A DNA stretch of 64,000 bases, taken from assembly GCA_964403585.1 (NCBI GenBank), contig CAYOFQ010000001.1, positions 12,456 through 76,455 of the forward strand. Reading direction: 5' to 3'. Below are positions 1,641-59,590 of this stretch, one piece after another (the first letter of the stretch is position 1; each line of letters begins with the position of its first letter). Position numbers and translations under genes: made by a program. The notes under the pieces are model-generated. The model searched no databases. It saw only the letters and a list, made by a program, of their open reading frames with translations, and was not told where the DNA came from. The DNA is from an uncultured Gammaproteobacteria bacterium. GTDB lineage: Bacteria > Patescibacteriota > Microgenomatia > JALYQM01.

Positions 1641-1901
1641 AAAACCTCCTCAAGAATAATCACTCCCAAGAAGGCTACGTAAAATTAAGGAAATAAGAAA
1701 TATATTCCTGCTCGGGATGAATAACTTTTTGTCTGTTTTCTGACTTTACAGTAGCGGCACTGTCCCGGAATTCCACCGGAGTTACCAAAACAAAAAGAAT
1801 GTATATGCAAGGTATTAAATTTCTCGATTATTTGCAAGAAGAAATACCTGTCCAAAATTACCTATTTTTTTTAAACCAATTTTGATATAGTACAGATAGC
1901 T

Positions 1902-4900
1902 ATGAACCGTGATCTCGAGCGATTACAATACATTTTACAGCAACTCTCCCAAACCCTAGAAGAACTTCCTGCCGATGATTTTATCAAAACACGCAATGAT
2001 CGTCTTGCTATCTACCAGCAATTAAAAGACAAATACCCGGAACTGGTTAAAAGACTTGAAGACGAACCAAATGGCAGTAAAGCCTTTGAAAGAGGGGTCA
2101 TTGTCGACCTCATTTCAGCCATTGCAACCGATCTTAACAAACCGGTTTGGACAGCAATACCTACCAACCGCGACGAACTGATCAAAGAATATATCGATTC
2201 TCTCGAAGCATCACCAACCCAGAGCAGCGTTGCGCAATCCTACCAACGGGTAATGCAAGCTAGAAAACCCGGACAAACTTCTTTCCACCAGGCCTCCAAC
2301 GCGTTTGATGAAATCTACGATTCCACACAAAAGATAATCAATCCGGAAAACGTGCAATTCCCTGCCGATCATAGCGATCGTGCCCGTGATAATAAAGTAG
2401 TTGCGGATCAACTATCGACACGAATCGCCGAAATAGTTGCAGAAAACTCGTTTGGTGATCCGGAAGAACGTGCCGACACCATTGAAGAAGAAATTAACGA
2501 AGCCTATCGACAAATGTATAACGTCTCGGGCGTTACGAAAAGGCACCAGGAAGTTATTCGCCGTGAAGCGGAACGACTTGCCGCACTACCTGTTGAAACT
2601 CCGGAAATACCGTCATCAGGAAACGCCCTCACTGATGAAATCGCCAAAAAAATTGCCACTGTGACCATTGGTCAACAGGTTACTCCCGAACAAATTGCTG
2701 AAACTGCACAGGCAATAACTCCGCAAGTTCAGGCAGCAATAAATAATCCCGCAACCGACAAAACGCCTGATCAACAGGTTGCCGAAGTAATTCGCCAGGG
2801 GGTAGAGCAAACTATCGCTCCACTCGTTGATTCACCGGCAATAGATAAATACCTGCGTACAAGTACTAATTCATTTGTAGACATCCAGTCAGTTGAAAAC
2901 TTCCGTGAAGAACTTCCTCAAGCCGTCCAGCAAACTGCCTATCAGTCGGTGAACGAAGCGGTACAACAGCAACGCGGTATTTCCCCGGAAGCTGTTCAGG
3001 CGTATCAGGATCCGCAAGTCCAACAGGCACTCCAGCGCGCAATCGACACTACTGCTAATACCTTAAAAGTCGCTGCCAATCCTCGCGACAATGCCACCGC
3101 CATTCAGGAAGCCGCTCAGTCCATTATGGCCCAGGAAGTCTATACCTCACTCAAAGACGATCCCAGATACCAGCAGTGGAATCGGGATAAAGCCGGCTAT
3201 GAACAAGTAGCCCCCAGCCTTCAGGAATTAGTTACTATTGCCGCCGGAGGCATGGCCTCAGGATTCATGGATAAACAAGCCGAACATGCGGTCGCGCTAG
3301 CCCAGCGTGATGTAGCGGCCGCACCCCCGGTAGAAGCAGTTAGAAGCACCGCTCGCCAAATCGTCGATTCAGTTAAAGCATCACTTCCATCCGACATCAA
3401 TTTAAGCCGCGATGAAGAACAACAGTTATATAGCAAAGTAGTCAATACTATCGACGACAACACCTACCAGCTCCGGCCTTCCCCCGTCGAAACATTAAAA
3501 GAAAAAATTGCCACCGATATTGAAGAAGTAGTTATTAATGGTCCACAACGAGAAACCCTGGATTTGTCCGGTACACTGCAACAGATTGAACCTCAAATTG
3601 AACCGGCTCTTGGCAGATATAATTTTGAATTGACTAAAGCCGCCGCCGAAAAATCTCTTGACTATCTCGAAGCCCAAGCCAAAGCAGCTTTTCCAGCAGC
3701 CGAAACAGTTTCGATTAAAGCCGAGGACTTCCCTGCTCCACCGGCACCAACTCAGGAAGTTATTGTTACCGGTCGCGGCGAACGGGCAGCAGAAGTCTTT
3801 ACTCGCCCTGCGTCTTTGATTGTTAAGGAAGTTACACCAACGCTCCAGTTAGATGCCCAGGAACAAGCCGATCTCCAGGAACGATTAGAGCTGACGCTTA
3901 CCGGTATGGCTTCAGCGGGCAAAACCCGCCAGGAAATGCAGCAAAGAGTTGCCGAAATAATCGCCGAAAATCCTAAAGGAGTAGATTCGGACACTTTAGA
4001 CGCTGCTTTGAAACATGCCGATTTTATGGCCGAGGGTCAGGCCAAGGTTGGCCGCCGACAATTCAACAAAGTCATGGCCGGTCCGGAAGATGCCAGGGTT
4101 TACGACACCAACGCTGGCCAGGAACCTGCGACCAGTGAACTCGCCGGCAAATATGCCCAATCAATGTTAAATAATATCGATGGCGAATCCGCCAGTACGA
4201 AGTCAATTGTAGATGATGTTGCCAGAACACTGAAACTCGATAACCAGGAACGAAGAACACTCCAGGCACAGTTAGGGGCAGAGTTTAGCGGAATGGTAGC
4301 CGACGGTAGGACGCAACAGGAAATAAAAGAACGTGCTGCTGAAATTGTTTCTGCAATTCACGAAGAAAAATACAAAGAACTTAAAGAAAAAACAAAGCAA
4401 ACTAAGGAAGAAAAAGAGACATTAGAAAAAGCCGAAAAAGCCTTAAAAACAGCATTAGAGCAGGTAAATAATCAGGAACCGCCCGAAAGATCACGTCAAA
4501 TCGCAGGACAATTGATTGATTCGATGCAAAAGCAAGCCGCTTCAGGTGCATGGAAAGACGAACAAGCCCAACGCGAACTTGCTGCCTATGCTGCTCAACG
4601 TGAAGAGTTAATAAGAGCATTCGAAGTTGCCAAAATGAGTGGCGATGTGGCCGAAATGGATACTTTGCACAAGCTAATTATTGATAACGATCGTCACTTC
4701 ATTGCTTCCAACCAGAACACCATGCTTGCTTCCTACTATGACAGTGGTTCAGTCGAAAAGTATCAGAACGAACGCCTGCAAAAAATAGCTGCAGCTAAAG
4801 AAGCATATAAAGAACGCCAGGCAGAAATTCAGCAGCAAATGGACGAGAACCGTATCACAGCTCAGGAAGGCCTTGATGCTTTAAAAAGACTCCATAAAGA

Positions 4901-7900
4901 TAGCTCTGGTGAAATAACCCAAAACTTAATCGAATTGCAAATGCAATTGGATTCACAAGCCATCAAGAAATCCGACGAAGAAAAAATTCTGGCATTACAA
5001 AGAGCATATATTGGATCCAGAGAAGACCAGCGTCGACCCGCAACATCAGGTGAACTAAATGTACTGAAGCGTGGTTTAGAGGAAACCAACTGGTACGACC
5101 GCGGAAATTTCTTAGCCTCAACCACCGATAACGCCACCAGATCAGTTGAAAAACATGTCGGTGATATATTAGAAAAACTTGCTGAGCAGGACCCGTCAAT
5201 AAGATCCAGATTAGCCGGTACAGCATTCAGTGCTATTAAACGCGATACTGCCAGCGCGGTAATGCAGGATTTGGCCGCCACTACGAGTAAATCTGAAGTA
5301 CAGTTTTCTATTCTTTCTACACTAAAAACTACACTTGAGGATAAAGTTACCGAACTTACCGGAAAAAAGGTTAAACTTGATCCGGGATCCACTGCCGGTG
5401 ATCTCTTAGCCAATTCGGCGTCAAAACTCGCCGGAGATAAAAAAGTCCAGGCAGCCGCCGCCATGCAATCAATCATGCCTATCGTCCCCCATATGACCGA
5501 CGAAGTTGAAGAAGGCGATTTATATGGACACCGTGAAGCCATGCGCGAAATGATGGCTCAGGATTACGAAAAAGGCGTTCGTGACATTCAAAAAAATCTT
5601 GATCGGGAGATTAAAAGAGGATTACGAAAATACCGAAAAGCAGCCAGTACTCCCCCACCGGATTCTTCATCAGGAGTAATCATCACCGAAAGAGGAGAAA
5701 AAGCCTCGCAAAGTTTCGACCGAGCAGCAGCATTAATCGTTAAAGAAATAAATCCTACTTTAAACCTCGATATAAGCACTCAATACGAACTTCGTGAACA
5801 AATTGAGCTTTCATTAGTTGGCATGGCTTCAGCAGGAAAATCTCGCGCCGAGATGCGCGCCAAAGTACAAGAATTAGTAACTAAATACGCTGGCAACGTC
5901 TCAGACGATGTCCTAACTGCAGCATTAAAACACGCGGATTTTATGGCCGAAGGCCAAACCAGAGCAGGTCGACGGTTATTTAAAAAAGCCATGGCTGGTC
6001 CGGAAAACCCGCAATCATATGGCAATGATCTCCGCGATCAGGCCATCCAGGGAAGTTTTGACCAGACCGCCAATCGTCTCGCCAGCAAAGCCGCTAAAAC
6101 ATTTTCCATGGATGCTTATGATGAAGGCGAACTAAGACGACAAATATCTGACATGCTTGTCACCATGGCCCGTCAGGGTAAAACACAAGCAGAAATGCAA
6201 AGCAGCATCTCAAACTTGATCCAGCAGACCATTAGCACCACTGAAGGCGGTAAATTCCTCGCCGAAAGAGAACGGGAAAGCAAAATTGTCACCGGTAATC
6301 AGGCAATCTATCTTAGCCGAAAACAAAAGAGAGATCAGTTCTATCGTGAAGATGCCTCCATGTCAATTGCATCCCTTCTCGAAGCTGTACGTTCTGCAAA
6401 TCCAAACATCACTGATGACCAACTCAATGCCATTGCTGAAAACACCATTACCAACACGATGGGTGGACTTAAAATCGTCCCTATTCAAGCCAAAAAAGAT
6501 AATGGCGACCTGATGTTTGATAAAGATGGTCAGCCGGTTTATGTGACCAACGGGAAAGATGCTGATGGCAATGACCTGATTGAATATAAACTGGAAGAAG
6601 GCAGTAGTGTTTTCGGTGTCAACGGTATCATGGGCCTCTCAAAAACCCAGCTCCGTATGATGGCGAAAATGTCCCCTGCCGAACAACTGGAATACCTTTC
6701 CAAATTTGATGAGCTGCGACGACAGCAAATATTTAGCTCTTTATCCATCTCCTTAAAACACGAATTAATGCAATTTGGAGTGTGGACTCCTCAAATGGAG
6801 AAAAAACTCAACAGTCTACGCTTGAAAGATTTTTACGACCGCGACCAACAAGAAAGTTATATTAATAGCGCCATCGCCGATGCTCAAAACAAAGTTGGTC
6901 GACCATTAACCAATTCGGAAATTGCCCAAATCCGAGCAGAAATGAGCGCTAAATTAAATAAGAAGATGTCCGTTCAGGATGCTATCGCCTTCCACATGGA
7001 GCGCGGGTATTCCCTTGACCACTTTGTTAAACAATTCCGCGAAGATACGTTAAGGAAAATGCGCAACAACCGCGAAGATGAAGCATCCTTCTATGACTTA
7101 TCTCGAGCAAGAAACTCATTTAGTAATAATATCAACACCATTGAAGCATTACTCGATCCAAGATTTGCCCAGAAATATGCCCGCCGCAAAGTAAGAGCGT
7201 ATAAACGGGATGCTCAAAAATTCATACTTGGCGCCGTTGGAATCGATAAAGACTCTTCCTGGACTGCCTGGTTTGGCAGTATGGTAAACGGCACCTTTCA
7301 GCAAAAAATGATTGGCCATGAAAAAAATCTCGCCGCACTCTCTAAAAAATACAAAATGGATGTGGCTCAAATTGCCAAAACTGGAATCAAACCGAAAAAT
7401 ATATCGTTATTTAAGAGTTTAGAATTAGACCGAGCTATTCGCTCCCAACGCGGCTTAGACGCCATCAAAAAAGCCCGCGAAGCCAACCCGCGACTCGCAT
7501 TCCTCTTCGATAAACGCGCGCAACGCATGCAAAGTAATAAATATGAATTTTCTGCCGAATTGTTCGAAACCCTCCTCCACGGTTCAGCAGGAATTAAAGC
7601 GCTTCCTGGAGTTGTCTCCAGTAGATTAATGAATGCAACCATCAACAAAATACTTACCGAGGGCAAAGGTTTCCGTAACTTTTTTGTCTACGATCGCAAA
7701 AGCAGGCAAATTCTCTTTACTCCCTATGAAGAACTAAAAATGAAGCGCGATGAAGCAGTGAAACAGCTCAAGGAAGCAGCGTGGAATTCACGGCCAATGA
7801 TGTATGCGCGCGAACAGGGAGATAAAGTTAAAGAATACGCTAAAGATCAATTTAAGAAATATGTTTGGGATTCAAAGCCGGTCAAAGCAGTTAGAAATCG

Positions 7901-10544
7901 TGTCAAAATGGCCGTTGCCAAAGTGGCCGGTAATGCCGTAGTTAAAGGTATACAAAGTTTAGCTACTAAAATAGCCGCTCGACTAACCCTAGAAGGTATT
8001 CTTGCTGTACTCCCTACCGGTGTAACCCAGGTTGCCGCTTTAATATTGGCAATCGACACAGCTTTAAGTTCAATACCAATTGTTAATATTATCTATGGTG
8101 CTATAAAATTCGTTGTACTTACACCTTTACGCTGGCTTTGGAAGTTAATCAAGATCATCGCCGCCATCGAAGCGTTACTGGCACTCTACGCGATATATCG
8201 CCTTGCGATGTTTGCTGTTCAATTATTGCATGCCGTTGCATCGGTGGCCGCTATTGGAGGCGCCGCTGGAACAATAACAGGATTTCTTTTAGGTGGAGTC
8301 CCCGGCGCATTTCTCGGCGGTATTATTGGCTGGGGCGCTGGTGCAATCGCCGGCACTGTCTTCCAGGCAGGAAAATTCTTATTCGGCAAATTAACTGGAG
8401 CACTCCAGGGAGGCGTTGCTATTGGAACCGGCGGAGCACTCGGTGCTCTTATGCCGGGATGGTTAAGTGGTTTCCTTTCAGGTGGCGTATCCGCACTTTC
8501 CTTTGGATTATTCAGTGTCCCGGCAGCCTTACTTAACGTTGCCGTTGCCTCAACCAGTGCTATCGCCGGATGGCTCACTTCCATGGGTGCGGCACAAGCA
8601 CTCGCAGTAGTATCCACGGGAGCCGCTATCGGCTTAACTGCACTTTTCAGCCCTGCATATATCACTGCCGTGATGGAATCGCTGCGTAAACCACTGGATA
8701 AAGCAGTGGGCGAATTAGCTACTTTCTCTTATCCCCTGCAGGTGACCAAAATCGCAGATAAAACTAAAGTTAACCAAAACGGTGAACAAATTAAATATAC
8801 GATCACGGTCAGTGGTCCTGCTTGTAGCCCAACTCTAACAGTAACAGATAAATTACCGGATACCCTCACCTTTGATCCATCTGTTCCACCTTCATTTGGA
8901 ACTCCACTCGATCCGTTAGTAGACAGCATCACACCACCAACTGGGCCAGACGCCAATAATACCTTAACCTGGACAATTAAATTGAAGCCTACAGCCGGCG
9001 AGTCCTGTAATGCTGCCCAAATAGATACCGGAGCAAACATCAGTATTCTGGACCCCAATAAGAACTTAGTCAGCTTGGCAGATATGCAGGCATTATTAGC
9101 AGCCTATCCAGGTGGATCATTCAAACCAATGAAGGATACCGCCCAATACTTTATTGATGGACAACAAAAATATGGAATTAATCCTCTCTTTGTTGCCGGA
9201 ATCGCCGCCTTCGAATCAACCATGGGAATCGGTGGAATTGGACGCCCTCCAAATCAGGCAGGTACCTCCGGTTGTTATAATGCCACCAACCTGAAATCAC
9301 CTAACACAAATATTCCTCAAAAATATGGCGGCACACGAGACTGTACCAACCCGGATTTCTGGAGATTCCCCAGCTATGAAGCCAACCTGGCCGCAACCTA
9401 CGAATGGATCCAAACCTATCATGTAAATAAAGGTGAAACCGATGTTGATTCCATCATGGCTCGGTATCAGGGCACGGATGACTTACGTAACACCGAAGTA
9501 GCCATCATTAAATGTACTATGAAAACTAAACGAGTTTGTTCTGATGGATCTGGCGGTGGTGGTGGCACTACTGCCCCAACCTTTACCGCAACCTTAACCT
9601 TTGCCGGCATCGCCAATGCACCAAAGTCAGGCAATGGACCAAATGGTGATGGCTGTATCGTCAATACAGTTACAGCACAGCTCGGAAGCTCAGGCGATGT
9701 ACTTACCTCAACAGGTGGAGCAACTACTGCTGTCGGTCCGGCAAAATGTAATGAATTACAATCATTACCTCAGGGAACCATTGCCGAAGCCAAAGCGTTT
9801 ATGTGTTCCCATCCAACTATCAAAATATGTCCAACAGTCGGTACTAAATACCCGCCTAACTCAGACTGGACACGTGAGCAACTTGAAGCATTGTGGACTG
9901 TTGCGCAAAAAGTCTATCAGGCTGAACCGTATCGCAGCTACGCTGTTGGAAACTATGGAATCGAAGTACAACGCAGCCGCTGCTACATCTACTTTAGTGC
10001 AGTGAACTGTCCTCCAACCGGTGCCGACGGAAAATCCGATAATACACAGGGGTTCAATCAAGGTGTTGATGCCAGCTTCGCAACAATGCAATTCTCAGCA
10101 GGCGTCACACCGAAAGTAGTATTAATTATGAACGGCATCGGTAGCATTAACGGGAACAACGACATACTACAATACCTTTATGCCCACGAAATTGCCCACT
10201 CCGCACAAAAAGGTACCGCCAGTGGCGGTATCGGTGACCGCACCAGAAATCCAGCCAACCAACCGGTACTGGCTCTGAACGAAGTTGTCAGCTTATACGG
10301 AGCACCTACAACCTATTGTATCTCTACTGGTGGACGTTTGCGCTGCGGAAGTGGCCTTCCCTTTGAAAATAACGCTGACGCAATCTCCTACTACATGACC
10401 AACGGTGAGGTTGGCGGTAACTATCGCGCCTGGACCGGTAACACCAACAATTTGAAAACTGATCATCCAAACACCTATAATGCTCTCATGAATGGTTTCT
10501 TTGCTACCGGAGCAAGTGGAGGTCCGCAAGAATATGGCCCTTAA
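1902..10544 (+). CDS. Giant 2880-aa multidomain surface/membrane protein: ~2000-aa charged helical region with internal repeats, glycine-zipper TM region, DUF11-like domain, FlgJ-like glucosaminidase domain, poly-Gly linker, Cys-containing C-terminal domain with HExxH
   Basis: A single open frame of 8.6 kb. Motifs read in the translation: GxxxG-rich hydrophobic block (AIGGAAGTITGFLLGGVPGAFLGGIIGWGAGAIAG...), a DUF11-like stretch (GEQIKYTITVSGPACSPTLTVTDKLPDTLTF), a glucosaminidase-like stretch (QKYGINPLFVAGIAAFESTMG ... FPSYEANLAATYEWI), and HEIAH near the C-terminus. Confidence 0.85.
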   Translation: MNRDLERLQYILQQLSQTLEELPADDFIKTRNDRLAIYQQLKDKYPELVKRLEDEPNGSKAFERGVIVDLISAIATDLNKPVWTAIPTNRDELIKEYIDSLEASPTQSSVAQSYQRVMQARKPGQTSFHQASNAFDEIYDSTQKIINPENVQFPADHSDRARDNKVVADQLSTRIAEIVAENSFGDPEERADTIEEEINEAYRQMYNVSGVTKRHQEVIRREAERLAALPVETPEIPSSGNALTDEIAKKIATVTIGQQVTPEQIAETAQAITPQVQAAINNPATDKTPDQQVAEVIRQGVEQTIAPLVDSPAIDKYLRTSTNSFVDIQSVENFREELPQAVQQTAYQSVNEAVQQQRGISPEAVQAYQDPQVQQALQRAIDTTANTLKVAANPRDNATAIQEAAQSIMAQEVYTSLKDDPRYQQWNRDKAGYEQVAPSLQELVTIAAGGMASGFMDKQAEHAVALAQRDVAAAPPVEAVRSTARQIVDSVKASLPSDINLSRDEEQQLYSKVVNTIDDNTYQLRPSPVETLKEKIATDIEEVVINGPQRETLDLSGTLQQIEPQIEPALGRYNFELTKAAAEKSLDYLEAQAKAAFPAAETVSIKAEDFPAPPAPTQEVIVTGRGERAAEVFTRPASLIVKEVTPTLQLDAQEQADLQERLELTLTGMASAGKTRQEMQQRVAEIIAENPKGVDSDTLDAALKHADFMAEGQAKVGRRQFNKVMAGPEDARVYDTNAGQEPATSELAGKYAQSMLNNIDGESASTKSIVDDVARTLKLDNQERRTLQAQLGAEFSGMVADGRTQQEIKERAAEIVSAIHEEKYKELKEKTKQTKEEKETLEKAEKALKTALEQVNNQEPPERSRQIAGQLIDSMQKQAASGAWKDEQAQRELAAYAAQREELIRAFEVAKMSGDVAEMDTLHKLIIDNDRHFIASNQNTMLASYYDSGSVEKYQNERLQKIAAAKEAYKERQAEIQQQMDENRITAQEGLDALKRLHKDSSGEITQNLIELQMQLDSQAIKKSDEEKILALQRAYIGSREDQRRPATSGELNVLKRGLEETNWYDRGNFLASTTDNATRSVEKHVGDILEKLAEQDPSIRSRLAGTAFSAIKRDTASAVMQDLAATTSKSEVQFSILSTLKTTLEDKVTELTGKKVKLDPGSTAGDLLANSASKLAGDKKVQAAAAMQSIMPIVPHMTDEVEEGDLYGHREAMREMMAQDYEKGVRDIQKNLDREIKRGLRKYRKAASTPPPDSSSGVIITERGEKASQSFDRAAALIVKEINPTLNLDISTQYELREQIELSLVGMASAGKSRAEMRAKVQELVTKYAGNVSDDVLTAALKHADFMAEGQTRAGRRLFKKAMAGPENPQSYGNDLRDQAIQGSFDQTANRLASKAAKTFSMDAYDEGELRRQISDMLVTMARQGKTQAEMQSSISNLIQQTISTTEGGKFLAERERESKIVTGNQAIYLSRKQKRDQFYREDASMSIASLLEAVRSANPNITDDQLNAIAENTITNTMGGLKIVPIQAKKDNGDLMFDKDGQPVYVTNGKDADGNDLIEYKLEEGSSVFGVNGIMGLSKTQLRMMAKMSPAEQLEYLSKFDELRRQQIFSSLSISLKHELMQFGVWTPQMEKKLNSLRLKDFYDRDQQESYINSAIADAQNKVGRPLTNSEIAQIRAEMSAKLNKKMSVQDAIAFHMERGYSLDHFVKQFREDTLRKMRNNREDEASFYDLSRARNSFSNNINTIEALLDPRFAQKYARRKVRAYKRDAQKFILGAVGIDKDSSWTAWFGSMVNGTFQQKMIGHEKNLAALSKKYKMDVAQIAKTGIKPKNISLFKSLELDRAIRSQRGLDAIKKAREANPRLAFLFDKRAQRMQSNKYEFSAELFETLLHGSAGIKALPGVVSSRLMNATINKILTEGKGFRNFFVYDRKSRQILFTPYEELKMKRDEAVKQLKEAAWNSRPMMYAREQGDKVKEYAKDQFKKYVWDSKPVKAVRNRVKMAVAKVAGNAVVKGIQSLATKIAARLTLEGILAVLPTGVTQVAALILAIDTALSSIPIVNIIYGAIKFVVLTPLRWLWKLIKIIAAIEALLALYAIYRLAMFAVQLLHAVASVAAIGGAAGTITGFLLGGVPGAFLGGIIGWGAGAIAGTVFQAGKFLFGKLTGALQGGVAIGTGGALGALMPGWLSGFLSGGVSALSFGLFSVPAALLNVAVASTSAIAGWLTSMGAAQALAVVSTGAAIGLTALFSPAYITAVMESLRKPLDKAVGELATFSYPLQVTKIADKTKVNQNGEQIKYTITVSGPACSPTLTVTDKLPDTLTFDPSVPPSFGTPLDPLVDSITPPTGPDANNTLTWTIKLKPTAGESCNAAQIDTGANISILDPNKNLVSLADMQALLAAYPGGSFKPMKDTAQYFIDGQQKYGINPLFVAGIAAFESTMGIGGIGRPPNQAGTSGCYNATNLKSPNTNIPQKYGGTRDCTNPDFWRFPSYEANLAATYEWIQTYHVNKGETDVDSIMARYQGTDDLRNTEVAIIKCTMKTKRVCSDGSGGGGGTTAPTFTATLTFAGIANAPKSGNGPNGDGCIVNTVTAQLGSSGDVLTSTGGATTAVGPAKCNELQSLPQGTIAEAKAFMCSHPTIKICPTVGTKYPPNSDWTREQLEALWTVAQKVYQAEPYRSYAVGNYGIEVQRSRCYIYFSAVNCPPTGADGKSDNTQGFNQGVDASFATMQFSAGVTPKVVLIMNGIGSINGNNDILQYLYAHEIAHSAQKGTASGGIGDRTRNPANQPVLALNEVVSLYGAPTTYCISTGGRLRCGSGLPFENNADAISYYMTNGEVGGNYRAWTGNTNNLKTDHPNTYNALMNGFFATGASGGPQEYGP
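3757..4107 (+). repeat. Intragenic ~115-aa repeat unit, copy 1, inside the giant gene (SLIVKEV..LTGMASAGKTRQEM..LKHADFMAEGQAKVGRRQF..AGPED)
   Basis: Protein-level and ~75% nucleotide-level similarity to copy 2 at 5674-6023. Shorter versions of the GM(A/V)xxG(K/R)TxxE(M/I) motif also occur near 4270-4350 and 6130-6230. Confidence 0.7.
5674..6023 (+). repeat. Intragenic ~115-aa repeat unit, copy 2, inside the giant gene
   Basis: ALIVKEINPTLNLD..LVGMASAGKSRAEM..LKHADFMAEGQTRAGRRLF..AGPEN aligns with copy 1. Confidence 0.7.
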
Positions 10545-11175
10545 TAATCTTCGCCAACTGCAACAATATCGGAATACCCTTGTTTTAGGAGTAATATTAC
10601 TCGGTATTGGCATCGTTGCAGCCATCATCTACTTTGATAACCCCCAGCCGGCCGAAACCCCACTCTCTCCAAAACCACAGCTGGTTATCAAAGATAACCC
10701 AACCGAATTACAAGTTGATTGGTCTAAAGTCAAACTGGGAATGTCTCAGGAGTCTATCGAAAAACTAATTGGTAAGCCAAGTGCTGTAAATGAAAACAAC
10801 GGCGCAAAATTTATAGTCTACGTAGCCAATCCTAAAACACCGTTAGCAACTCATGTCATAACACTCAAGAACAATAAAGCAGTGGCCATCAAACGCAATG
10901 TCGACAGTCACAACCAGATCATTACCCGCGAGCAGTATGAAAGAAAATTCGGCAATGCTGAAGTCATTCGGGAACAAAGTGGAAATGAAGTCGAGGCATT
11001 ATATGCGTATAAAATTGCCGACAACGAATATCTGTTGATTGAAGTAGATACACAAAACAACCAGGTGTACAACATTTTAGATGTCGTTGGTGAAGAATAC
11101 GAAAACATCAAGAAAGAAGAGAAATTGGCTAAGGAACAGAGCCAACCGGAAGAACGCGGATTTGAAGCCTTTTAA
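10534..11175 (+). CDS. Hypothetical membrane-anchored protein with a single N-terminal TM helix
   Basis: The ORF track gives 10492-11175. The likely start is ATG 10534 (MALNNLRQ...), preceded by GGAGG, and overlaps the giant gene stop by 11 nt. The TM helix is LVLGVILLGIGIVAAIIYF. Confidence 0.6.
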   Translation: MALNNLRQLQQYRNTLVLGVILLGIGIVAAIIYFDNPQPAETPLSPKPQLVIKDNPTELQVDWSKVKLGMSQESIEKLIGKPSAVNENNGAKFIVYVANPKTPLATHVITLKNNKAVAIKRNVDSHNQIITREQYERKFGNAEVIREQSGNEVEALYAYKIADNEYLLIEVDTQNNQVYNILDVVGEEYENIKKEEKLAKEQSQPEERGFEAF

Positions 11176-11495
11176 AGTATTCCCGACCAGTAACGAACTT
11201 TCTTAATAACCCCCTTACCGAGTATTTCGTGCAAACAAAATACCAGCTTACGCTCCTTCATCCGAACCTCATGCCCCCAAACGGAAGAAGCCACAGCTAA
11301 AGTGAGTACACCATCTTTAAAAGATTTCGCCCGTACATTTCCCACCGCTTTTTCACCAAGAATTTTTCCAATCTCCTTTTGCACAACCTCCACCACCCGC
11401 GCCGCATCCATAGCTGCCGGATCACCCGAACGTTCAGCAACTGCAGATAACAAATCTGAAACTTTAACAAAAGACATAGTAGGATTATACGTCAT
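11172..11495 (-). CDS. DUF721-family protein (small conserved protein usually found downstream of dnaN/recF)
   Basis: The C-terminal pattern DGVLTLAVASSVWGHEVRMKERKLVFCLHEILGKGVIKKVRYW matches the DUF721 consensus (dGtLtvevdspawaqeLs...I.frv). It sits downstream of dnaN and shares an overlapping TTAA stop with the upstream convergent gene. Confidence 0.65.
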   Translation of the reverse strand: MTYNPTMSFVKVSDLLSAVAERSGDPAAMDAARVVEVVQKEIGKILGEKAVGNVRAKSFKDGVLTLAVASSVWGHEVRMKERKLVFCLHEILGKGVIKKVRYWSGIL

Positions 11496-11539
11496 ATATA
11501 AATAACTTTTTTTAGTAAAATTAAGGATCTGCTGTTTGT

Positions 11540-11675
11540 TTTACGAAGCGAGGACTTCCGCTGAAGGGAGCCAAATCGCAATAAGCGACCGAATACTTAC
11601 ATTAAGAACAAAAAAGACAGAGAGCGAGAAGACGTAAACTACGAAAGACTGAGCATCCGCAGCGAGTAAAACGAA
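11540..11675. repeat. Intergenic repeat element, copy A (GCGAGGACTTCCGCTGAAGGGAGCC...GAGCATCCGCAGCGAG)
   Basis: Shares 5' and 3' conserved blocks with the copies at 14690-14845, 35195-35400 and 50365-50480. Confidence 0.6.
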
Positions 11676-11692
11676 TACAGATCCTACTAAGT

Positions 11693-12817
11693 TTAATCCA
11701 CCAGCACCGGCATAATCACATGCAGATATTCCGATACCTCAGGTATTCGCCAAACACCCGGCTGATTCGAACCATTCATCTCAAAAACTACATCCGAACT
11801 CTTTATTTTTCCCAAAAATTCCAATAAATAACGACTATTGAAAGCAATCGTATTTGCGCTGCCTTCAATAGTTCCATTTACTTCACCGCTAAATTCTCCA
11901 ACCTGCTCAGTGGCGCTGGAAAGGCGCACCACACCGGCCGAAGGATCTATTACGGTTTTTAGTATCGATGCACCGCTACGGGCAAATAAAGAGGCTGTAC
12001 GGACAGTTCTAAGTAACTCATCCGATTTAAAAATTACCCGGGTAGCATAACTTTTAGGAATAATTTTATTGTACGGAGGAAAAGTACCTTCCAGAATTCT
12101 GGTCATAAACAAATTACCGTCAGGGAGTTTAAAAATTAACTGAGTACCTTCTTTAGACAAACCGCATTCAATATTTCCCGCATTTTCCCCGCTATATTCC
12201 CGCAACACTTTTCCTACCTCATTCAGGACTTTAGCACCTAATACTACTGCAAAATTCTTATCCAGAACCTCGGAACTGAATTTTTCCACCGACAAACGAA
12301 AACCGTCAGTAGCAGCCATCTCCATTTGACCGCTTTCAACACGTAAGGAAATACCGGTTAAAATCGCCCGGGCCTCATCACTACTCGCGGCAAAGGACAC
12401 TCTGTCGATCGCATCAACCAGCTGTCTTGTCGGCAAAGTATAGCGAGTCGGTTGCATATCAAAGGAAAGTTCCGGATATTCCTCAGAAAAAATACCGGTA
12501 AAATCAGACTTTGTCTTACCTTCAACAATTTTCAAAAGTTGTTCGGTAGTTTCGATAACTAATACACCTGCCGGCAAATTAAGAACAAAATCGGTAAGAA
12601 GCTTTGCTGGAGCAACAAAGAAACCGTCTTCACCACCGTTAACTTCCAGAACAACCCGTAACGCAACTTCCGTATTATTTCCAATCAGAGTTAACTTATT
12701 TCCTTCAAGATCCATCAATACCCCGGATAAAACGGGCAACGTAGTCCGCGTAGCAATACCACGGCCCACCAAACTTAAAGCTCGGGCAAATTGGTCCTGT
12801 TGTACTGAAAATTTCAT
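11693..12817 (-). CDS. dnaN: DNA polymerase III beta sliding clamp
   Basis: MKFSVQQDQFARALSLVGRGIA..TLPVLSGVLM... is a typical DnaN N-terminus. Length is 374 aa and the gene lies just downstream of dnaA/oriC. Confidence 0.9.
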   Translation of the reverse strand: MKFSVQQDQFARALSLVGRGIATRTTLPVLSGVLMDLEGNKLTLIGNNTEVALRVVLEVNGGEDGFFVAPAKLLTDFVLNLPAGVLVIETTEQLLKIVEGKTKSDFTGIFSEEYPELSFDMQPTRYTLPTRQLVDAIDRVSFAASSDEARAILTGISLRVESGQMEMAATDGFRLSVEKFSSEVLDKNFAVVLGAKVLNEVGKVLREYSGENAGNIECGLSKEGTQLIFKLPDGNLFMTRILEGTFPPYNKIIPKSYATRVIFKSDELLRTVRTASLFARSGASILKTVIDPSAGVVRLSSATEQVGEFSGEVNGTIEGSANTIAFNSRYLLEFLGKIKSSDVVFEMNGSNQPGVWRIPEVSEYLHVIMPVLVD

Positions 12818-13205
12818 TTACCTCCTCACTTTCTATTATTATGAGAGTTTTCTCATTTAAAGAGAATTTATACGTGTGTAGGTGATACTACACTAAGTGC
12901 TACCAATTGTAAATTTTCTTCTCTTCTGTCTATTATCTTTATTTCTTATATATAAATATATAGTATTCTTAGTAATATACTCTGTGTATATCTGCATAAC
13001 ACGGTTACAGTGAAGCTAGCTTTTTTGTGGAATTAGCCGTTAATCCAACTGTAATAGTCTATCTCCTCTACTCTATCCTATATCATACGTAGTACTTTCG
13101 GATTATATTAGCCTTGATAACTTATACTATTTTGTGGATATCTTTGTGGATTACTTTTTTATTCTGTGGATAACCTACTTTTACTTATCCACACATGACT
13201 AAAAG
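12818..13205. other. Chromosomal replication origin (oriC): AT-rich unwinding region plus a cluster of DnaA boxes between dnaA and dnaN
   Basis: AT-rich stretch at ~12890-12990 (ttatatataaatatatagtattcttagtaatatactctg). DnaA-box-like 9-mers: tgtggaatt ~13027, ttgtggata 13132, tgtggatta 13146, tgtggataa 13165, ttatccaca 13185, ttatccaga 13206, and tgtggataa 13261 just inside the dnaA 3' end. Confidence 0.8.
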
Positions 13206-14657
13206 TTATCCAGATAGCTCCTGTTTTATCAACTGTATTTCACGACGGATTTGTTCATTTGTGGATAACGCCAATTCTATCTGCTTCACTCCATGCATGA
13301 CGGTAGTATGGTCTCTTCCGCCCAGTAACTCCCCTACTCTCTCGAGTGGTAAGCCCATTTCGGAATTAAGAAGATACATGGCAATCTGCCGTGGTATTAC
13401 CAGGTTCTTAGTTCGACGGGTTCCCAGCAGATCAGACTTCTTAATAGCGAAGTGATGGTGGATAACTTGCAAAACACGTTGTGGATTAATGGCATTCCCG
13501 AGGCTGACCGATTGAGTGGACTCTTCACCCCAGGCGGTCCGGACATTTTCCAGTGTCCCGATCCAGCCGTTCGTCTTTAATTTTGAAATTATTTGAAACA
13601 ATTTACCTTGTAATTCTCTGGTATTACTGCTGATACGTGACGCTAAGAAATCTACGGCATTCGGCTCTATATGTTCACCCATATCCTGACATTTAGTCTG
13701 AATAATTGCCACCCGCATTTCATAATCCGGCAAACCTACGTCGACCATCATTCCGCCTTTAAACCGCGAGGACAATCGTTCTTCCAGTTGCGGAATTTCC
13801 TCCGGCGTTCTATCCGAAGTCATGAGCACATGCCCGCCGCGCCCGACAATGTCATTAAATGTATGGAAAAACTCTTCCTGAGTACTGTCTTTCCCGGCTA
13901 TAAACTGAATATCATCTACCAGAATAATGTCACAGGAGCGGTAGCGCTCTCTAAACTTGTCCGTGGATTTAGTTGAAATACTATATATATATTCATTAGT
14001 AAATTTTTCAGATGAAAAATAAAGGATCTTCTTATTTGGGAATTTAGACAACACCGCATTCCCGACTGCCATCATCAAGTGGGTTTTGCCTAACCCAACC
14101 CCGCCATATATAAAAAGCGGATTGTATCCCTTACCCGGATTTTGCGCGACCGCCTGAGAGGCCGCATACGCCACGTTATTACTTTTGCCGACTATAAAGT
14201 TGTCGAAAACCAGATTAGGATTGAGCCCATTAAAAACACTCCCTCCCCCACTCCCTGCCGAAGTAGATACGGAATTTTGACGAACCGGAGGTGCAATATC
14301 ATCAATCTGCATGGTCGTATCTGCATAAACCTCTTCATTCTGCTGTACAAATAGCGGAGCCTGAACCCTATCCTGCTCCGGCCTGGTTCGGGCAGAATCC
14401 TTTATCTTTGCCTCCACAAACACCAGCTCTACTTCCTCAGGATAATATTCCTCAATCATTGAAGGAATCATCCCTTTAAATTTTTTCGTCAGTTCCTGTG
14501 CCGAGAATAAGCTCGACACCCCAATCGTCCAGGTATTACCGTCAACCGACACTACATCGGTATTATGAAAGTGCAATTTATACACCCCCACCGACAAGGC
14601 ACCCTTAATATCTTTTAATACTTTTTTCCAGATAGACTGTGCTTCTTCGAGAGTCAT
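13206..14657 (-). CDS. dnaA: Chromosomal replication initiator protein DnaA
   Basis: Walker A GGVGLGKTHLMMAVGN, an AAA+ domain, and a C-terminal DNA-binding helix-turn-helix region. Classic dnaA-dnaN context. Confidence 0.92.
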   Translation of the reverse strand: MTLEEAQSIWKKVLKDIKGALSVGVYKLHFHNTDVVSVDGNTWTIGVSSLFSAQELTKKFKGMIPSMIEEYYPEEVELVFVEAKIKDSARTRPEQDRVQAPLFVQQNEEVYADTTMQIDDIAPPVRQNSVSTSAGSGGGSVFNGLNPNLVFDNFIVGKSNNVAYAASQAVAQNPGKGYNPLFIYGGVGLGKTHLMMAVGNAVLSKFPNKKILYFSSEKFTNEYIYSISTKSTDKFRERYRSCDIILVDDIQFIAGKDSTQEEFFHTFNDIVGRGGHVLMTSDRTPEEIPQLEERLSSRFKGGMMVDVGLPDYEMRVAIIQTKCQDMGEHIEPNAVDFLASRISSNTRELQGKLFQIISKLKTNGWIGTLENVRTAWGEESTQSVSLGNAINPQRVLQVIHHHFAIKKSDLLGTRRTKNLVIPRQIAMYLLNSEMGLPLERVGELLGGRDHTTVMHGVKQIELALSTNEQIRREIQLIKQELSG

Positions 14658-14689
14658 AAACTTTATTTCATAAAGTGTGCGAATTATTT

Positions 14690-14845
14690 GATTTGCGCAG
14701 CGAGGACTATCCGCCTGTTGAGCCGGAGTCGAGTAGTTGCGTAACGAGCGAAGGCGAAATTACAAACCTTACGACTAGTAATAGTTCGAGAGCGCAACTG
14801 CTGGATAAAAGCACAGCCCGAGCATCCGCAGCAAGCAAATCAAAT
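14690..14845. repeat. Intergenic repeat element, copy B (GCGCAGCGAGGACTATCCGCC...CCGAGCATCCGCAGCAAG), in the rpmH-dnaA intergenic region
   Basis: Same conserved end blocks as copies A, C and D. Confidence 0.55.
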
Positions 14846-15050
14846 TAGAGCACAACGTAAAGGAAGGCTAATACCAAGATATTAACGTCTTATCCCCAAC
14901 AATACAAGACCAAAAATGAGTCTAAAACCTATAGTTTTTCCACAAAAAAAACACATTATCAACATCGAAAACAACGCCCTGTAGGCACAAAAACTGTGAA
15001 GCGAACACACTAATTGACACAATATCAAAATATACAGTATAATCCCCGTT

Positions 15051-15194
15051 ATGAAACGTACCTGGCAACCAAAAAAGACCAAAAGACTCCGTAAACACGG
15101 CTTTTTATCTCGCATGGCAACCCGCCTCGGAAGAAAAGTATTAGCACGTCGCCGCACCAAAGGCCGAGTAAAACTCACAGTTTCTGCTAAATAA
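15051..15194 (+). CDS. rpmH: 50S ribosomal protein L34
   Basis: Manual translation gives [47 protein letters not shown] (47 aa). It is below the 60-aa cutoff of the ORF track and canonically precedes rnpA. Confidence 0.9.
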
Positions 15195-22602: not shown

Positions 22603-22640
22603 TAAAAGAGGCTACCGGCAAGGTAGTCTCTTTTTTATTG
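22603..22640. terminator. Bidirectional intrinsic terminator between rplY and the convergent hypothetical gene
   Basis: aaaagaGGCTACCggcaaGGTAGTCTCttttttatt: a GC-rich stem followed by a T-run. Confidence 0.6.
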
Positions 22641-23276
22641 GCCGAGCAAGTTAAGCACTTTCTCCCCTTGCAAAAACTGAGGATCCATATTAACAGCTTC
22701 TTGTACAAGTACCCGCGCGTGAGCATCATCAAATAGCATATACGATTTTTGACCTAATCGGTAAAGAACATCGCGGTAATCCGGATGGGTCTTAGAGATG
22801 TCATTCCAGTGATTGTACTCCCCTATAGTTGTATGAAAAACGATTTTACGTGCGGAAATACTTTCTTCGAGAGTACGAAGTGCAGACAACTCCTCTTGAG
22901 TCGGCACCAGCACCTCCTGGGCAACATGCAAAAATGCCACTTCATGTTGCGCCTCCTCTAACCTGTTCTTAACGGTCAAAGACTCCAGATATAAAAGATG
23001 TGATCGATAAGATTTCGGCGAAGTTACTAGGTCATCCGAGAAACTGTTCGCTGTGGTAGAAACAGGGAAAAAGATTCGTATTTGTACGAGGGCGAAAAAT
23101 ATAATACAGCTATATAGCAACGTATGAAATACATACGCCGCCGTATTCCCGGGCTTAAAAGGCAGTGCGGGAATCGATCGGAAAAAATGCGGGAATTGAA
23201 AAGGGGGCTTTGATACCTCAGGCTCGGAATTAGTGCTTTCACGCTTCACAAAATATCGTTTATTGAACTGAGCCAT
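22635..23276 (-). CDS. Hypothetical membrane-anchored protein
   Basis: Open frame with one TM segment (LLYSCIIFFALVQIRIFF). No recognisable motif. Confidence 0.45.
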   Translation of the reverse strand: MAQFNKRYFVKRESTNSEPEVSKPPFQFPHFFRSIPALPFKPGNTAAYVFHTLLYSCIIFFALVQIRIFFPVSTTANSFSDDLVTSPKSYRSHLLYLESLTVKNRLEEAQHEVAFLHVAQEVLVPTQEELSALRTLEESISARKIVFHTTIGEYNHWNDISKTHPDYRDVLYRLGQKSYMLFDDAHARVLVQEAVNMDPQFLQGEKVLNLLGQ

Positions 23277-33760: not shown

Positions 33761-34720
33761 ATGAGCGAAACCAGAGTCCTCCTCGCCACCGACCTTACCT
33801 TTGCCCGCCCGCACCCTGCGGATAACCCGGCAGGCGGAATTCTCCGTATGGTTCGGGATTATGCCCGCCGCAGCGTCACTGGGCTCCACAACTACGCTAA
33901 AAGTCTAGGGGCCGATGGTGCGTATTATATGGCCAACAGAGGCTCGGTAAGCGGCTGGCAGCTACGACTCGGAATACTCAACGAAACAGGTACCAATTCC
34001 TTGGAACAGGGAGCAGTATTACAATCCTGGCTGGGCGAAAAACTCCGCATTCTTAACCCGAACGCCGAAATCGATGTCTTTTATGAAATGAAACAATGGG
34101 AGCAGCAAACAAAGCAGAAATACCCATACCTAGTGCTCGGAATGTACCGCCACAAAGACAATGAACTTACTTGGTTAAAGCGACTTCGCGGCAGATCCCC
34201 GCATATCCCCATAACCTGGCAATATACGCCGGATACACTACAACTACTGCAGAGCTTTAATGAACTTGATCAGGACAATACCATGCAGATAACACCTGAA
34301 GTTTGGGGTCAACTGCAAGTCCAGGGTAATGGAAGTATTGATCACAGGCTGCTTCGGGAACATCGCTTGCGCTTATGCTATCATGTCCCAACCACGCGCA
34401 AAGCAGTAAAAACTACCGTAGACTGGAAAGCCATCCGGCAAAATCCGGGGATCATCAGAGCATTCGAAGGCACCTTTGGCCGGGAAGATATCGGCAACGA
34501 CGCCACCGCAGAAGTACGGGATATCCAGGCCTACATCGACGGCCAGGACATTGGCATGGTGCAACAACTGGAACGCCTGAAGCAGTCCGGTGTAAAATTA
34601 CGGAGAATAATAGTTGGCGTACCACTGGCGGCACTTTCTCAGGCACTTGGTTCAAAAGAGAAAAGTGATCTCGAAGCAGGTTTAAAATTAATTATTAATC
34701 GCACCAGACATCTTACCTAA
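33761..34720 (+). CDS. Hypothetical protein (locally elevated GC), translationally coupled to ybaK-like gene
   Basis: 319-aa frame. The surrounding region has several overlapping long frames, consistent with GC-rich coding sequence. The stop is 1 nt before the next start. No motif recognised. Confidence 0.5.
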   Translation: MSETRVLLATDLTFARPHPADNPAGGILRMVRDYARRSVTGLHNYAKSLGADGAYYMANRGSVSGWQLRLGILNETGTNSLEQGAVLQSWLGEKLRILNPNAEIDVFYEMKQWEQQTKQKYPYLVLGMYRHKDNELTWLKRLRGRSPHIPITWQYTPDTLQLLQSFNELDQDNTMQITPEVWGQLQVQGNGSIDHRLLREHRLRLCYHVPTTRKAVKTTVDWKAIRQNPGIIRAFEGTFGREDIGNDATAEVRDIQAYIDGQDIGMVQQLERLKQSGVKLRRIIVGVPLAALSQALGSKEKSDLEAGLKLIINRTRHLT

Positions 34721-34721: not shown

Positions 34722-35189
34722 ATGAGCGAAGTCTTTGAAAAAATAAAACAACTCCTTGATGCGCAAAAAGTTCAGTACACGCTTACTGAGCACGAACCCG
34801 TCCGAACTAGCATCGAGGCTGCCCAAATCAGGGGCGTCGATCTCTCCACCGGAGCCAAAGCCATGGTCGTCAAAGCCAATAATCAATACTATTTAATAGT
34901 CATACCCGCAGACCGTAAAATCGACTGGAAACTGGTAAAGTCACTTCTAAACACCAAAGAAATCCGTTTTGCTACTGAAGAAGAAGCCGAGCAGGTAACT
35001 CAAGTAAAAATGGGATCCGTTCCGCCGTTTGGCAACATTCTCGGATTACCAACCTACTTTGACCAGTTAATTCGCGACAAAGAAACCGTCCATTTTAACC
35101 CCGGCAGCCTCCGCCATTCTATCGGCATGAAAGCAGCAGATTTAATACGGCTGGTTAGCCCGACAATATCTTCCGTTTCTAAAGAATAA
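34722..35189 (+). CDS. YbaK/ProX-family aminoacyl-tRNA deacylase domain protein
   Basis: HEPVRTSIEAA......GAKAMVVKANNQYYLIVIPADRKIDWKLVK.LL......FATEEE....T....GSVPPFG matches the YbaK trans-editing domain pattern. Confidence 0.65.
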   Translation: MSEVFEKIKQLLDAQKVQYTLTEHEPVRTSIEAAQIRGVDLSTGAKAMVVKANNQYYLIVIPADRKIDWKLVKSLLNTKEIRFATEEEAEQVTQVKMGSVPPFGNILGLPTYFDQLIRDKETVHFNPGSLRHSIGMKAADLIRLVSPTISSVSKE

Positions 35190-35194: not shown

Positions 35195-35400
35195 TACAGC
35201 GAGGTATTGTTCTTTTGCGAAGTCGAACTTCCGCCCTAGAACCAATTCGAAGAATTAAATTATTTCGCCGCGAGGACATCCGCTGGAGGGAGCCGAACAC
35301 GCAATAAGCGACCGAATGACAAGGTTACTAATGCACAGCGTAAGGGGGCAAGTTAACATTAAGGTGCACTGTCTGAGCTTCCGCAGCAAGAAATAATTTA
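35195..35400. repeat. Intergenic repeat element, copy C (tandem 5' block: TTTGCGAAGTCGAACTTCCGCCC... then GCCGCGAGGACATCCGCTGGAGGGAGCCGAACACGCAATAAGCGACCGAATGA...GAGCTTCCGCAGCAAG)
   Basis: The longest copy. Its internal part is about 85% identical to copy A over roughly 50 nt, and its first block resembles copy D. Confidence 0.6.
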
Positions 35401-35416
35401 ATCGAGAATTTTACAA

Positions 35417-50124: not shown

Positions 50125-50364
50125 AGATATCTAAAAGATATCACGAGCAAAAATCGTGCGCAACTTGACAAATAAGCACAACAAACCTATACTTAGCCCT
50201 TAGTTAAGCAAAAAATATAGCGGGGTAGTGTAAAGTGCACGTGAGGCTCATAATCTCACAGACCCGGAGCGTTACCGGGCCCCGCAACACAGAAAATACC
50301 GATCTCGAAAAGGGGTCGGTATTTTGTTTTTTAATACGATGCCTGTTTGACTGTGAAACTTATT

Positions 50365-56664: not shown

Positions 56665-59590
<2,926 letters not shown>

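Follow-up and report, generated by a model that had tools for sequence, protein, structure and literature searches.

A lineage-confined family of hairpin-bounded intergenic repeats with copies on both sides of dnaA–dnaN in an uncultured bacterium

Introduction

What does it mean when two copies of one intergenic repeat stand on either side of a bacterial replication module? The question is raised by a stretch of 64,000 nt (assembly GCA_964403585.1, contig CAYOFQ010000001.1, positions 12,456–76,455) from an uncultured bacterium that GTDB places in the Patescibacteriota; we refer to this whole stretch as the window. One copy of the repeat (A) lies downstream of dnaN and the other (B) between rpmH and dnaA. 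A sequence-only reading of the window had suggested that the pair could be either regulatory RNAs or protein-binding sites tied to replication, or insertions resembling miniature inverted-repeat transposable elements (MITEs).

We find that A and B belong to a repeat family that is dispersed among unrelated genes, confined to one lineage, patchily present at orthologous spacers and closed at its base by helices that co-vary. They probably represent, with at least two further copies, a lineage-specific, dispersed, non-autonomous repeat of ~125–200 nt that is, or formerly was, mobile. The best reading of its kind is a REPIN-, ERIC- or MITE-like repeat, or a multicopy structured RNA module, that sits in these spacers incidentally. 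We conclude that the bracketing of dnaA–oriC–dnaN is an accident of insertion and has no replication function.

Results

Two repeats beside the replication module belong to a larger family

Direct reading of the sequence places copy A in the dnaN–dciA spacer and copy B in the dnaA–rpmH spacer, among genes arranged as the sequence-only reading had them (dnaN at 11693–12817 and dnaA at 13206–14657 on the minus strand, rpmH at 15051–15194 on the plus strand). Where that reading counted two copies, the window holds four and one fragment, all of them intergenic and on the plus strand. Scores in the following list refer to a covariance model built from six copies (R1); a second model (R2) was built from eight.

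11525–11685, plus strand: copy A, in the dnaN–dciA spacer, antisense to dnaN and dciA; R1 score 141.7 bits
14686–14845, plus strand: copy B, in the dnaA–rpmH spacer, 28 nt from the dnaA start codon; R1 score 111.2 bits
35254–35402, plus strand: copy C, between a convergent ybaK-like gene and an M23 peptidase gene; R1 score 141.5 bits
50359–50482, plus strand: copy D (diverged), between two tRNA-Met(CAU) calls; R1 score 13.9 bits, E ~0.08
35214–35237, plus strand: D-like 5′-half fragment GCGAAGTCGAACTTCCGCCCTAG, 24 nt, directly left of copy C
14660–14676, plus strand: small hairpin read by eye (ACTTTAT-TTC-ATAAAGT), with the dnaA start codon on one side and copy B on the other

Copies A and B have in common a 5′ core (GCGAGGAC-N1-3-CCGC) and a 3′ core (GAGCATCCGCAGC), separated by a variable stretch of 89 nt in A and 105 nt in B, close to the ~100 nt first estimated. 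The 5′ core had been described with one optional T; the core itself is present, but copy B carries a 3-nt insert, TAT, at this point. Each copy is enclosed by an inverted repeat outside the bounds first drawn, and the elements, correctly located, are therefore longer than was supposed. The conserved ends do pair with one another, the 5′ GC and GGA with the 3′ GC and UCC, but the main pairing sits farther out, in the flanking inverted repeat.

In copy A the closing stem GGATCTGCTGTTTGTTTTAC / GTAAAACGAATACAGATCC (arms 11525–11544 and 11666–11685) comprises ~19 bp with one bulge and, in the plus-strand reading only, two G-U pairs; it encloses the 5′ core GCGAGGACTTCCGC (11548–11561) and the 3′ core GAGCATCCGCAGCGAG (11651–11666). 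Copy B is closed by a perfect 11-bp stem, ATTTGATTTGC (14686–14696) / GCAAATCAAAT (14835–14845), around cores GCGAGGACTATCCGC (14700–14714) and GAGCATCCGCAGCAAG (14820–14835). Copy C, flanked by the ybaK-like gene at 34722–35189 (plus) and the M23 peptidase gene at 35417–36352 (minus), has a perfect stem of 13 bp, ATTAAATTATTTC / GAAATAATTTAAT (35254–35266 and 35390–35402; inverted repeat I12), a 5′ core at 35270–35283 and the 3′ core GAGCTTCCGCAGC at 35375–35387. Copy D starts from the stem CTTATTCG (50359–50366) / CGAATAAG (50475–50482), continues with an inner stem UUUGC/GCAAA, and has a core altered in a compensatory way, 5′ GCGAAC pairing with 3′ GUUCGGC. It is matched by R1 over the full length of the model; its R2 score of 53.3 bits is no independent evidence, because D is among the eight copies on which R2 was trained. 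The closing arms are thus complementary, perfectly or nearly so, inside each copy, yet their sequence varies from copy to copy.

The likeness of A and B exceeds chance. The window holds three matches to GAGGAC-N1-4-CCGC where 0.23 are expected, a count reached in 0 of 100 shuffles, and the exact 13-mer GAGCATCCGCAGC is found twice. Copies A, B and C are recovered at E ≤ 1e-21 by both nhmmer and covariance models. The two cores stand paired ~100 nt apart in all five canonical copies, and across 235 kb of DNA from the lineage single cores are absent save for one 3′-core match with one mismatch in the relative L126, which we take as chance.

The fragment left of copy C is identical to positions 10–33 of copy D at 22 of its 24 bases (blastn-short, E 0.004). 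By eye, the arms of the small hairpin at 14660–14676 resemble the closing stem (ACACTTAT / ATAAAGTGT) of a copy in a related genome (L019, below), and this hairpin may be a stem-only remnant or a target hairpin.

The family is confined to one lineage

We scanned GTDB genomes with the pattern GAGGAC-N1-4-CCGC-N75-105-GAGCNTCCGCAGC. Among the matches listed were 119 stretches, 117 of which we read as chance: they are GC-rich (typically 60–80% G+C) and have no flanking inverted repeat. The other two, at loci L019 and L105, are real copies of the family, and the number of genomes with the element is at least that given by these matches. DnaN homologues show that the metagenome-assembled genomes (MAGs) holding L019 and L105 are relatives of the window genome. 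Scored with R1 and R2, copies were distributed as follows.

Window genome: four copies in 64 kb
GCA_964535655.1 (loci L105, L121 and L191; DnaN 86% identical to that of the window): two copies in 50 kb
GCA_964525495.1 (loci L019 and L125; DnaN 68% identical): two copies in 29 kb
Five other relatives: no copy in ~93 kb
JGI loci from bacteria with ≤46% PBP1A identity: no copy in 644 kb

By DnaN identity, further relatives are represented by loci L126 (95%), L122 and L123 (both 84%) and L194 (66%); GCA_030154765.1 (L192) was found through its M23 peptidase, which is 74% identical. Beyond this group the best DnaN matches fall to ~36%, which marks the lineage as isolated. A stricter pattern found no match in JGI metagenomes, and no match to the family was found in viral contigs or in plasmid and phage collections. 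The family is confined to this lineage.

Three of the four copies in the two related MAGs lie between unrelated genes: L019 between DUF1861 and GH130-like genes, L105 between hypothetical genes after a canonical terminator, and L125 between yidC and jag. Identity is highest, at 76%, between C and L105, which belong to separate genomes and occupy separate loci; A and the L121 copy, which stand at the same site, reach only 65%.

Closing stem and core are kept by compensatory change

The unit begins and ends with an AT-rich closing stem, P1, of 8 to more than 20 bp, whose sequence drifts while its pairing stays. Inside it lies a conserved asymmetric core in which 5′ GC-GA-GGA pairs with 3′ UCC-GCA-GC; the two short helices that result, GC/GC and GGA/UCC, flank a purine-rich internal loop, where 5′ GA stays unpaired opposite 3′ GCA. 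A conserved 5′ junction, C-N-UCCGCUG, leads from the core into an interior of ~90–150 nt that is poorly conserved and falls into subfamilies: A, C, L105 and L121 have GCUGGAGGGAGC...GCGACCGAAU in common, and B, L019 and L125 have GCGUAAC...GAGCGA.

Of the 13 P1 pairs compared in six copies, 11 differ on both sides and two are invariant, with 88% of cells paired; none of 500 shuffles reaches the observed percentage paired or the covariation score. Extending the comparison to eight copies and 21 pairs gave 89% of cells paired and 16 pairs changed on both sides, counts that are inflated by the fitting of this alignment (A6) to the model. Here again 0 of 500 shuffles attain the observed values for cells paired, pairs changed on both sides, cells changed on both sides and covariation score; for a fifth measure, further pair types, eight of 500 do. 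When the partner strand is slid by 1–3 columns, only 32–53% of cells pair. Compensatory changes in the core can be read from the raw sequences: in L125, GC/GC has become AU/AU and GGA/UCC has become GAG/CUC (AU...GAG(C) with (G)CUC...AU); in D, GC-GAA(C) faces (G)UUC-G-GC, that is, GAA/UUC; and in L121, GC...GGC faces GCC...GC, that is, GGC/GCC.

The best partner for CNUCCGCU in the 5′ junction is an internal AGCG(A)GAAG-like motif that precedes the 3′ core by 37–52 nt in A, C, D, L105 and L125; the distance from this motif to 3′ AGCRAG is a constant 38–39 nt in A, B, C and L105. Joined by such a helix, P3, the closing stem and the core helices would form a candidate three-way junction. We hold P3 as a candidate only, because B and L019 do not fit it. 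Interior folds predicted by RNAalifold and from single sequences differ between copies. Summed folding energies are −361 kcal/mol for the plus strand and −347 kcal/mol for the minus strand, values that do not assign the strand. A local 5′ hairpin, GCGAGG-ACN-UCCGC, which with the repeated UCCGC would have made a two-state switch, was rejected: it is lost in L125 and L121, and the long-range core helices are kept.

The bracket around dnaA and dnaN is not conserved in relatives

The dnaA–rpmH spacer measures 393 nt in the window and 180–205 nt in L121, L122 and L123. All four loci have in common the block AGATATTAAC-(N)TCTTATCCCCAAC...TTTTCCACA...TTATCAACA and, in addition, the rpmH promoter. 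The difference in length corresponds to one feature of the window:

within 14658–14876: extra ~213 nt found in the window only, made up of copy B and ~50 nt of flanks, between the dnaA ATG and the conserved block

Copy B is thus absent from this spacer in three relatives with 84–86% DnaN identity. On the other side of the module, the dnaN–dciA spacer is empty in L122 (21 nt) and L125 (46 nt). In L121 it holds a diverged family copy (11137–11292, stem GACUUAUUUC / GAAAUAAGUC). L126, the closest relative, has a different hairpin-bounded sequence of ~190 nt there, which cannot be aligned to the family and is matched by neither R1 nor R2; this element (2789–3027) has arms of roughly 30 nt, GCGAAUUAGAAAAAAAUAUUUUUU / AAAAAAUAUUUUUUUCAAUCGC. 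Hairpin elements of different kinds appear to land repeatedly in the dnaN–dciA spacer. Nor is copy C found at its site between ybaK and the M23 gene in L191, L192 or L193.

Taken over five relatives, the positions of A and B relative to oriC are not conserved. With four copies placed at random over the spacers of the window, each of the two spacers flanking dnaA–dnaN would receive one with P ~0.005–0.008, a value for a pattern that was chosen post hoc. Since the pattern is post hoc and is not conserved, we judge the symmetric placement to be incidental. The other two window copies, C and D, are at distances of 20 and 36 kb. Copies dispersed among unrelated genes and missing from these sites in close relatives are not part of the replication machinery, and the tie to replication proposed in the sequence-only reading, for elements that contain no DnaA box, is not supported.

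Several further observations concern the surroundings of copy C and other hairpin units. In L191, from the 86% relative, a PIN-domain toxin gene with a small upstream open reading frame (ORF) occupies 10937–11562 beside the M23 gene in place of the ybaK-like gene, so the convergent spacer that holds copy C is variable in gene content too. The nearby GH8–M23 spacer contains a hairpin-bounded unit in L192 (~9480–9640, stem GUAAACUUUUC / GAAAAGUUUAC) and, in the window, 13-nt arms TTGAGGCTAAATT / AAATTAGCCTCAA at 36498–36651, part of which sequence recurs in L192. Family models detect no homology between the family and the units at L126 2789–3027, L192 ~9480–9640 and window 36498–36651. The lineage seems rich in hairpin-bounded intergenic elements.

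Comparison of the repeat with the signatures of known element classes

We compared the copies with the diagnostic features of mobile and regulatory elements. A MITE would carry the same terminal inverted repeats in every copy; here 11 of 13 P1 pairs vary, and the conserved part is subterminal and not inverted. Nor are the ends inverted repetitive extragenic palindromic (REP) units forming a hairpin, as the cores are not reverse complements of one another and pair only through GC/GC and GGA/UCC. The ends of A, B, C and D contain none of the integron attC boxes (R′′ RYYYAAC, R′ GTTRRRY), and the copies are solitary. A Y1 transposase of the REP-associated (RAYT) type was found neither in the 64-kb window nor in the loci fetched from relatives. 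An Xer-type recombinase gene lies 0.9 kb from D; it is syntenic beside pth in a relative with no copy nearby and so looks like a housekeeping gene.

Signatures of an independent RNA gene or of a cis-regulator were likewise sought. No sigma-70 promoter or intrinsic terminator of the element's own adjoins A, B, C or D in a consensus-based scan, which is a weak test; the same scans find the promoters of rpmH (12/12) and tRNA-Met (11/12) and a terminator-like hairpin downstream of the first tRNA-Met call. The constant sense position in a 5′ untranslated region (UTR) expected of a riboswitch or attenuator is not seen: C lies between convergent and B between divergent genes, A and L121 are antisense, and D, L019, L105 and L125 occupy operon or 3′-UTR positions, next to unrelated genes. 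Two results speak against a DnaA-binding element of oriC type (a DnaA-box cluster, or a datA- or DARS-like site): A and B have no box inside, and their position is not conserved. Rfam 15 gave no hit at gathering thresholds, and at E ≤ 10 only chance-level matches to snoRNA and Ocean-V models (14–19 bits).

Further candidates were rejected by eye on sequence or context, among them hammerhead, twister and other ribozyme cores as well as the integron attC site. A retron msr/msd was rejected too, there being no reverse transcriptase gene nearby. A general role as intrinsic terminator was set aside, as only some copies have U-runs after the stem (by eye).

Local setting of copies A and B

Pfam identifies dciA (most likely start 11478), dnaN and dnaA on the minus strand and rpmH, rnpA, yidD, yidC and jag on the plus strand; the gene on the far side of copy A is dciA. 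Three perfect DnaA boxes (TTATCCACA) at 13165, 13185 and 13260, in or adjoining the dnaA–dnaN spacer, make this region the likely oriC. Matches to TTWTNCACA occur at these three positions and at 14936, none of them inside A or B. GC skew is negative over nearly the whole window and does not change sign at the putative oriC near 13 kb, so skew does not mark the origin here; AT skew is positive almost throughout.

Relatives have a TAATAT-like box only a few nucleotides ahead of the dnaA ATG, and DnaA-box-like sequences immediately upstream. In the window, copy B intervenes, and this conserved promoter and DnaA-box block has moved ~215 nt from the dnaA start codon. Displaced in this way, the block should give rise to a dnaA mRNA that carries the reverse complement of B as its leader, a long hairpin 28 nt upstream of the start, unless a new promoter lies inside the insertion; a consensus scan detected none there. 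Copy A begins 7 nt past the dnaN stop codon and lies upstream of what appears to be dciA's own promoter (TATAAT, 7 nt, ATG at 11478), an arrangement that would put A in the dnaN 3′ UTR in its antisense form.

The start of dciA itself deserves comment. The mechanical ORF begins at 11495, but alignment with relatives (ATGTCTTTT...) and the TATAAT box point to a start codon at 11476–11478 and a protein of ~101 aa, not 107 aa. A TATAAT-like box 6–8 nt before the start, with no Shine-Dalgarno sequence, recurs at rpmH (15051), rnpA (15239), yidC (15837) and dciA (11478, minus strand), and also at 22635–23276 (minus), 33761–34720 (plus) and 47111–49390 (minus). The rpmH promoter is perfect, TTGACA-18-TATAAT-7-ATG. 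Classical GGAGG sites are found instead at dnaN, groES and groEL. This pattern suggests that leaderless mRNAs are common in this organism. Adjoining the dciA side of the module is an ORF of 2880 aa (1902–10544, plus strand), at whose place relatives have ORFs of 1.8–2.5 thousand aa with no Pfam hit on record.

Other RNA features of the window

Copy D is flanked by two tRNA-Met(CAU) calls. The first, a 70-nt ARAGORN call at 50219–50288 (plus strand), has an 11/12 sigma-70 promoter (50165–50193), a strong terminator-like hairpin (50293–50325) and a T-loop, AGCGUUA, that is not of the usual UUCGAAU type. It goes undetected by the Rfam tRNA model even at E ≤ 10; the second call (50575–50646) scores 64 bits with that model. 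The first may be an unusual initiator, a tRNA-Ile2-like molecule or a pseudo-tRNA.

Genes for tRNA-Ala, 23S rRNA (56659–59589) and 5S rRNA (59922–60038) stand together at 56258–60038; with no 16S gene upstream and the preceding 5 kb protein-coding, the rRNA operon is split. An AdoCbl-II (cobalamin) riboswitch aptamer was detected at 1726–1796 (minus strand), with 41.4 bits where the gathering score is 36.5; downstream of it, on the same strand, is a small ORF (1046–1471).

Discussion

We favour a dispersed mobile repeat because its sites are filled patchily, the closest pair of copies is not orthologous, a fragment adjoins copy C, and neither a promoter or terminator nor a conserved neighbour accompanies the copies. 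The unit would have spread, or would still spread, as a non-autonomous element, probably through an intermediate in the form of a folded single strand, as what is conserved is a hairpin shape with a subterminal core and not identical terminal repeats. Once inserted in an AT-rich intergenic spacer, its expected landing place, it would be transcribed solely within the mRNAs of its neighbours, whose processing or stability the long hairpin could alter. The earlier suggestion of a MITE-like intergenic insertion is partly supported and comes closer to the evidence than the tie to replication. Patchy presence, a fragment beside a full copy and the greatest similarity between copies at non-orthologous loci speak for it, but the inverted repeats are not of one sequence across copies, and neither a target-site duplication nor, in the DNA read, a parent insertion sequence (IS) was found; the idea was right in spirit and wrong in mechanism.

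Several results weigh against a mobile repeat. No consistent target-site duplication was found by direct-repeat search around A, B and C or by eye in the flanks of D, L019 and L105; beside the outermost pair of A, B and C stand only TAA, TAAAG and AAC, neither adjacent nor shared. The 235 kb of lineage DNA contain no longer element bounded by these ends, and a Pfam scan of the window yielded the Xer-type recombinase but neither a transposase nor a RAYT. All pairs of filled and empty sites are too distant to give exact insertion boundaries, copy number looks low in the DNA sampled, and the fitted eight-copy alignment and the folding energies carry the reservations given above. Asymmetric loops that stay conserved and helices kept by compensatory change would also mark a functional RNA, and a selfish repeat and a useful RNA module look alike in these data.

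It is a real if tentative possibility that the repeat is such an RNA: a trans-acting or protein-binding small RNA, or a cis-acting processing, stability or ribozyme module, present in many copies and selected for its fold, with dispersal secondary. The readings as mobile repeat, as functional RNA and as single-stranded DNA (ssDNA) site overlap one another. Neutral correction of palindromes by template switching would tend to erase asymmetric internal loops; here the loops stay unpaired while P1 and both core helices change in a compensatory way. The motif that partners CNUCCGCU in five copies and its constant spacing in four add to the case, as does the setting between co-directional genes, with the plus form sense at four sites (D, L019, L105 and L125) and antisense at one (A/L121). 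Set against this, the window copies have no promoter or terminator beside them, Rfam offers no match even at a permissive threshold, gene neighbours are not conserved, the interior is poorly conserved with predicted folds that vary by copy, folding energies leave the strand unassigned, and the element is missing from orthologous spacers and from ~93 kb of five relatives, which would be unexpected of a needed RNA.

Quite improbable, in our estimate, is a set of ssDNA recombination or transposition sites, folded hairpins that a tyrosine recombinase or HUH enzyme would read by shape over sequence. A hairpin kept through variable stem sequence, with conserved unpaired core bases, recalls attC and REPINs; turnover at the dnaN–dciA spacer is fast, and the Xer-type gene lies near D. 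However, the ends have no attC R′′/R′ boxes and form no cassette arrays, the window contains no RAYT or Y1 transposase, and the Xer gene keeps its place beside pth in a relative with no copy close by. Insertion of the IS200/IS605 type is biased in orientation with replication direction; the window copies do not fit, all being on one strand although the putative origin separates A from B, C and D. We give almost no credence to A and B as parts of the replication module, whether as DnaA-titrating or -reactivating sites, oriC insulators, or regulators of dnaA or dnaN. In favour of such a role stand the placement of two of the four window copies in the flanking spacers (a post hoc pattern), the hairpin elements in the dnaN–dciA spacer of the window, L121 and L126 (in a fourth genome this spacer is 233 nt, known by length only) and the location of B within the dnaA leader. 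Yet DnaA boxes are lacking in both copies, three relatives lack B and two lack A, the closest relative fills the A site with a non-homologous element, and C, D, L019, L105 and L125 lie at sites unrelated to replication.

A dispersed mobile repeat thus remains our preferred reading, and its nearest analogy would be with elements recognised as folded single strands. REPINs, known from Pseudomonas and E. coli among others, are REP doublets that form hairpins and are mobilised by RAYTs; frequent compensatory changes that preserve their hairpin have been reported (PMC3116915). Our family resembles them in being short (~100–150 nt), non-coding, strictly extragenic and multicopy, in its predicted long hairpin in ssDNA or mRNA, and in having two conserved blocks around a less conserved spacer with compensatory changes in the hairpin. 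It differs in that REPIN blocks are inverted REP copies at the outer ends, present in tens to hundreds of copies, with a flanked RAYT gene, whereas here the outermost stem is variable, the cores are subterminal and contribute 5 bp of pairing, no RAYT was seen, and four copies occur in 64 kb. The cores GAGGAC-N-UCCGC and GAGC-W-UCCGC look more like a direct repeat than an inverted REP pair.

With ERIC/IRU, RUP, BOX and Correia elements the family has in common a size of ~100–170 nt, imperfect palindromes, a location in transcribed intergenic spacers and 3′ UTRs, patchy presence and an expected effect on mRNA processing or stability. Those elements have terminal inverted repeats of one sequence, and Correia, RUP and other MITEs also have a short target duplication and a parent IS; none of these features was seen here. 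Integron attC sites, of 57–141 nt, are recognised by shape as a folded single strand. The variable stem sequence, conserved unpaired bases, variable central part and comparable size of our copies recall them, but R′′/R′ sites, arrays of promoterless cassettes and intI are lacking, and the copies stand alone between housekeeping genes. Riboswitch-like and orphan Rfam motifs offer a further likeness in the co-varying closing stem, the conserved junction nucleotides near its base and the variable distal parts; the family differs from them in its mixed spacer types and in having no downstream gene class, no expression platform and no Rfam hit.

This comparison removes a tempting link between a repeat and a replication origin; it also brings to light, in an uncultured small-genome bacterium, a new family of structured interspersed repeats restricted to one lineage. 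Its unusual trait is the conservation of a hairpin with an asymmetric subterminal core instead of terminal repeats, the helices being kept by compensatory change. Copy B illustrates how dnaA, an essential gene, can through an insertion exchange a start-adjacent promoter for a long structured leader. That the family represents a new class, either an active three-way-junction RNA (a small ribozyme or host-protein ligand) or an ssDNA element moved by a shape-reading enzyme, seems unlikely; if it did, origin-proximal AT-rich spacers such as dnaN–dciA would be preferred landing sites. Should a mobilising enzyme or an RNA activity be found, the family would add a new case to the elements recognised by shape, beside REPINs, attC sites and the ends of IS200/IS605.

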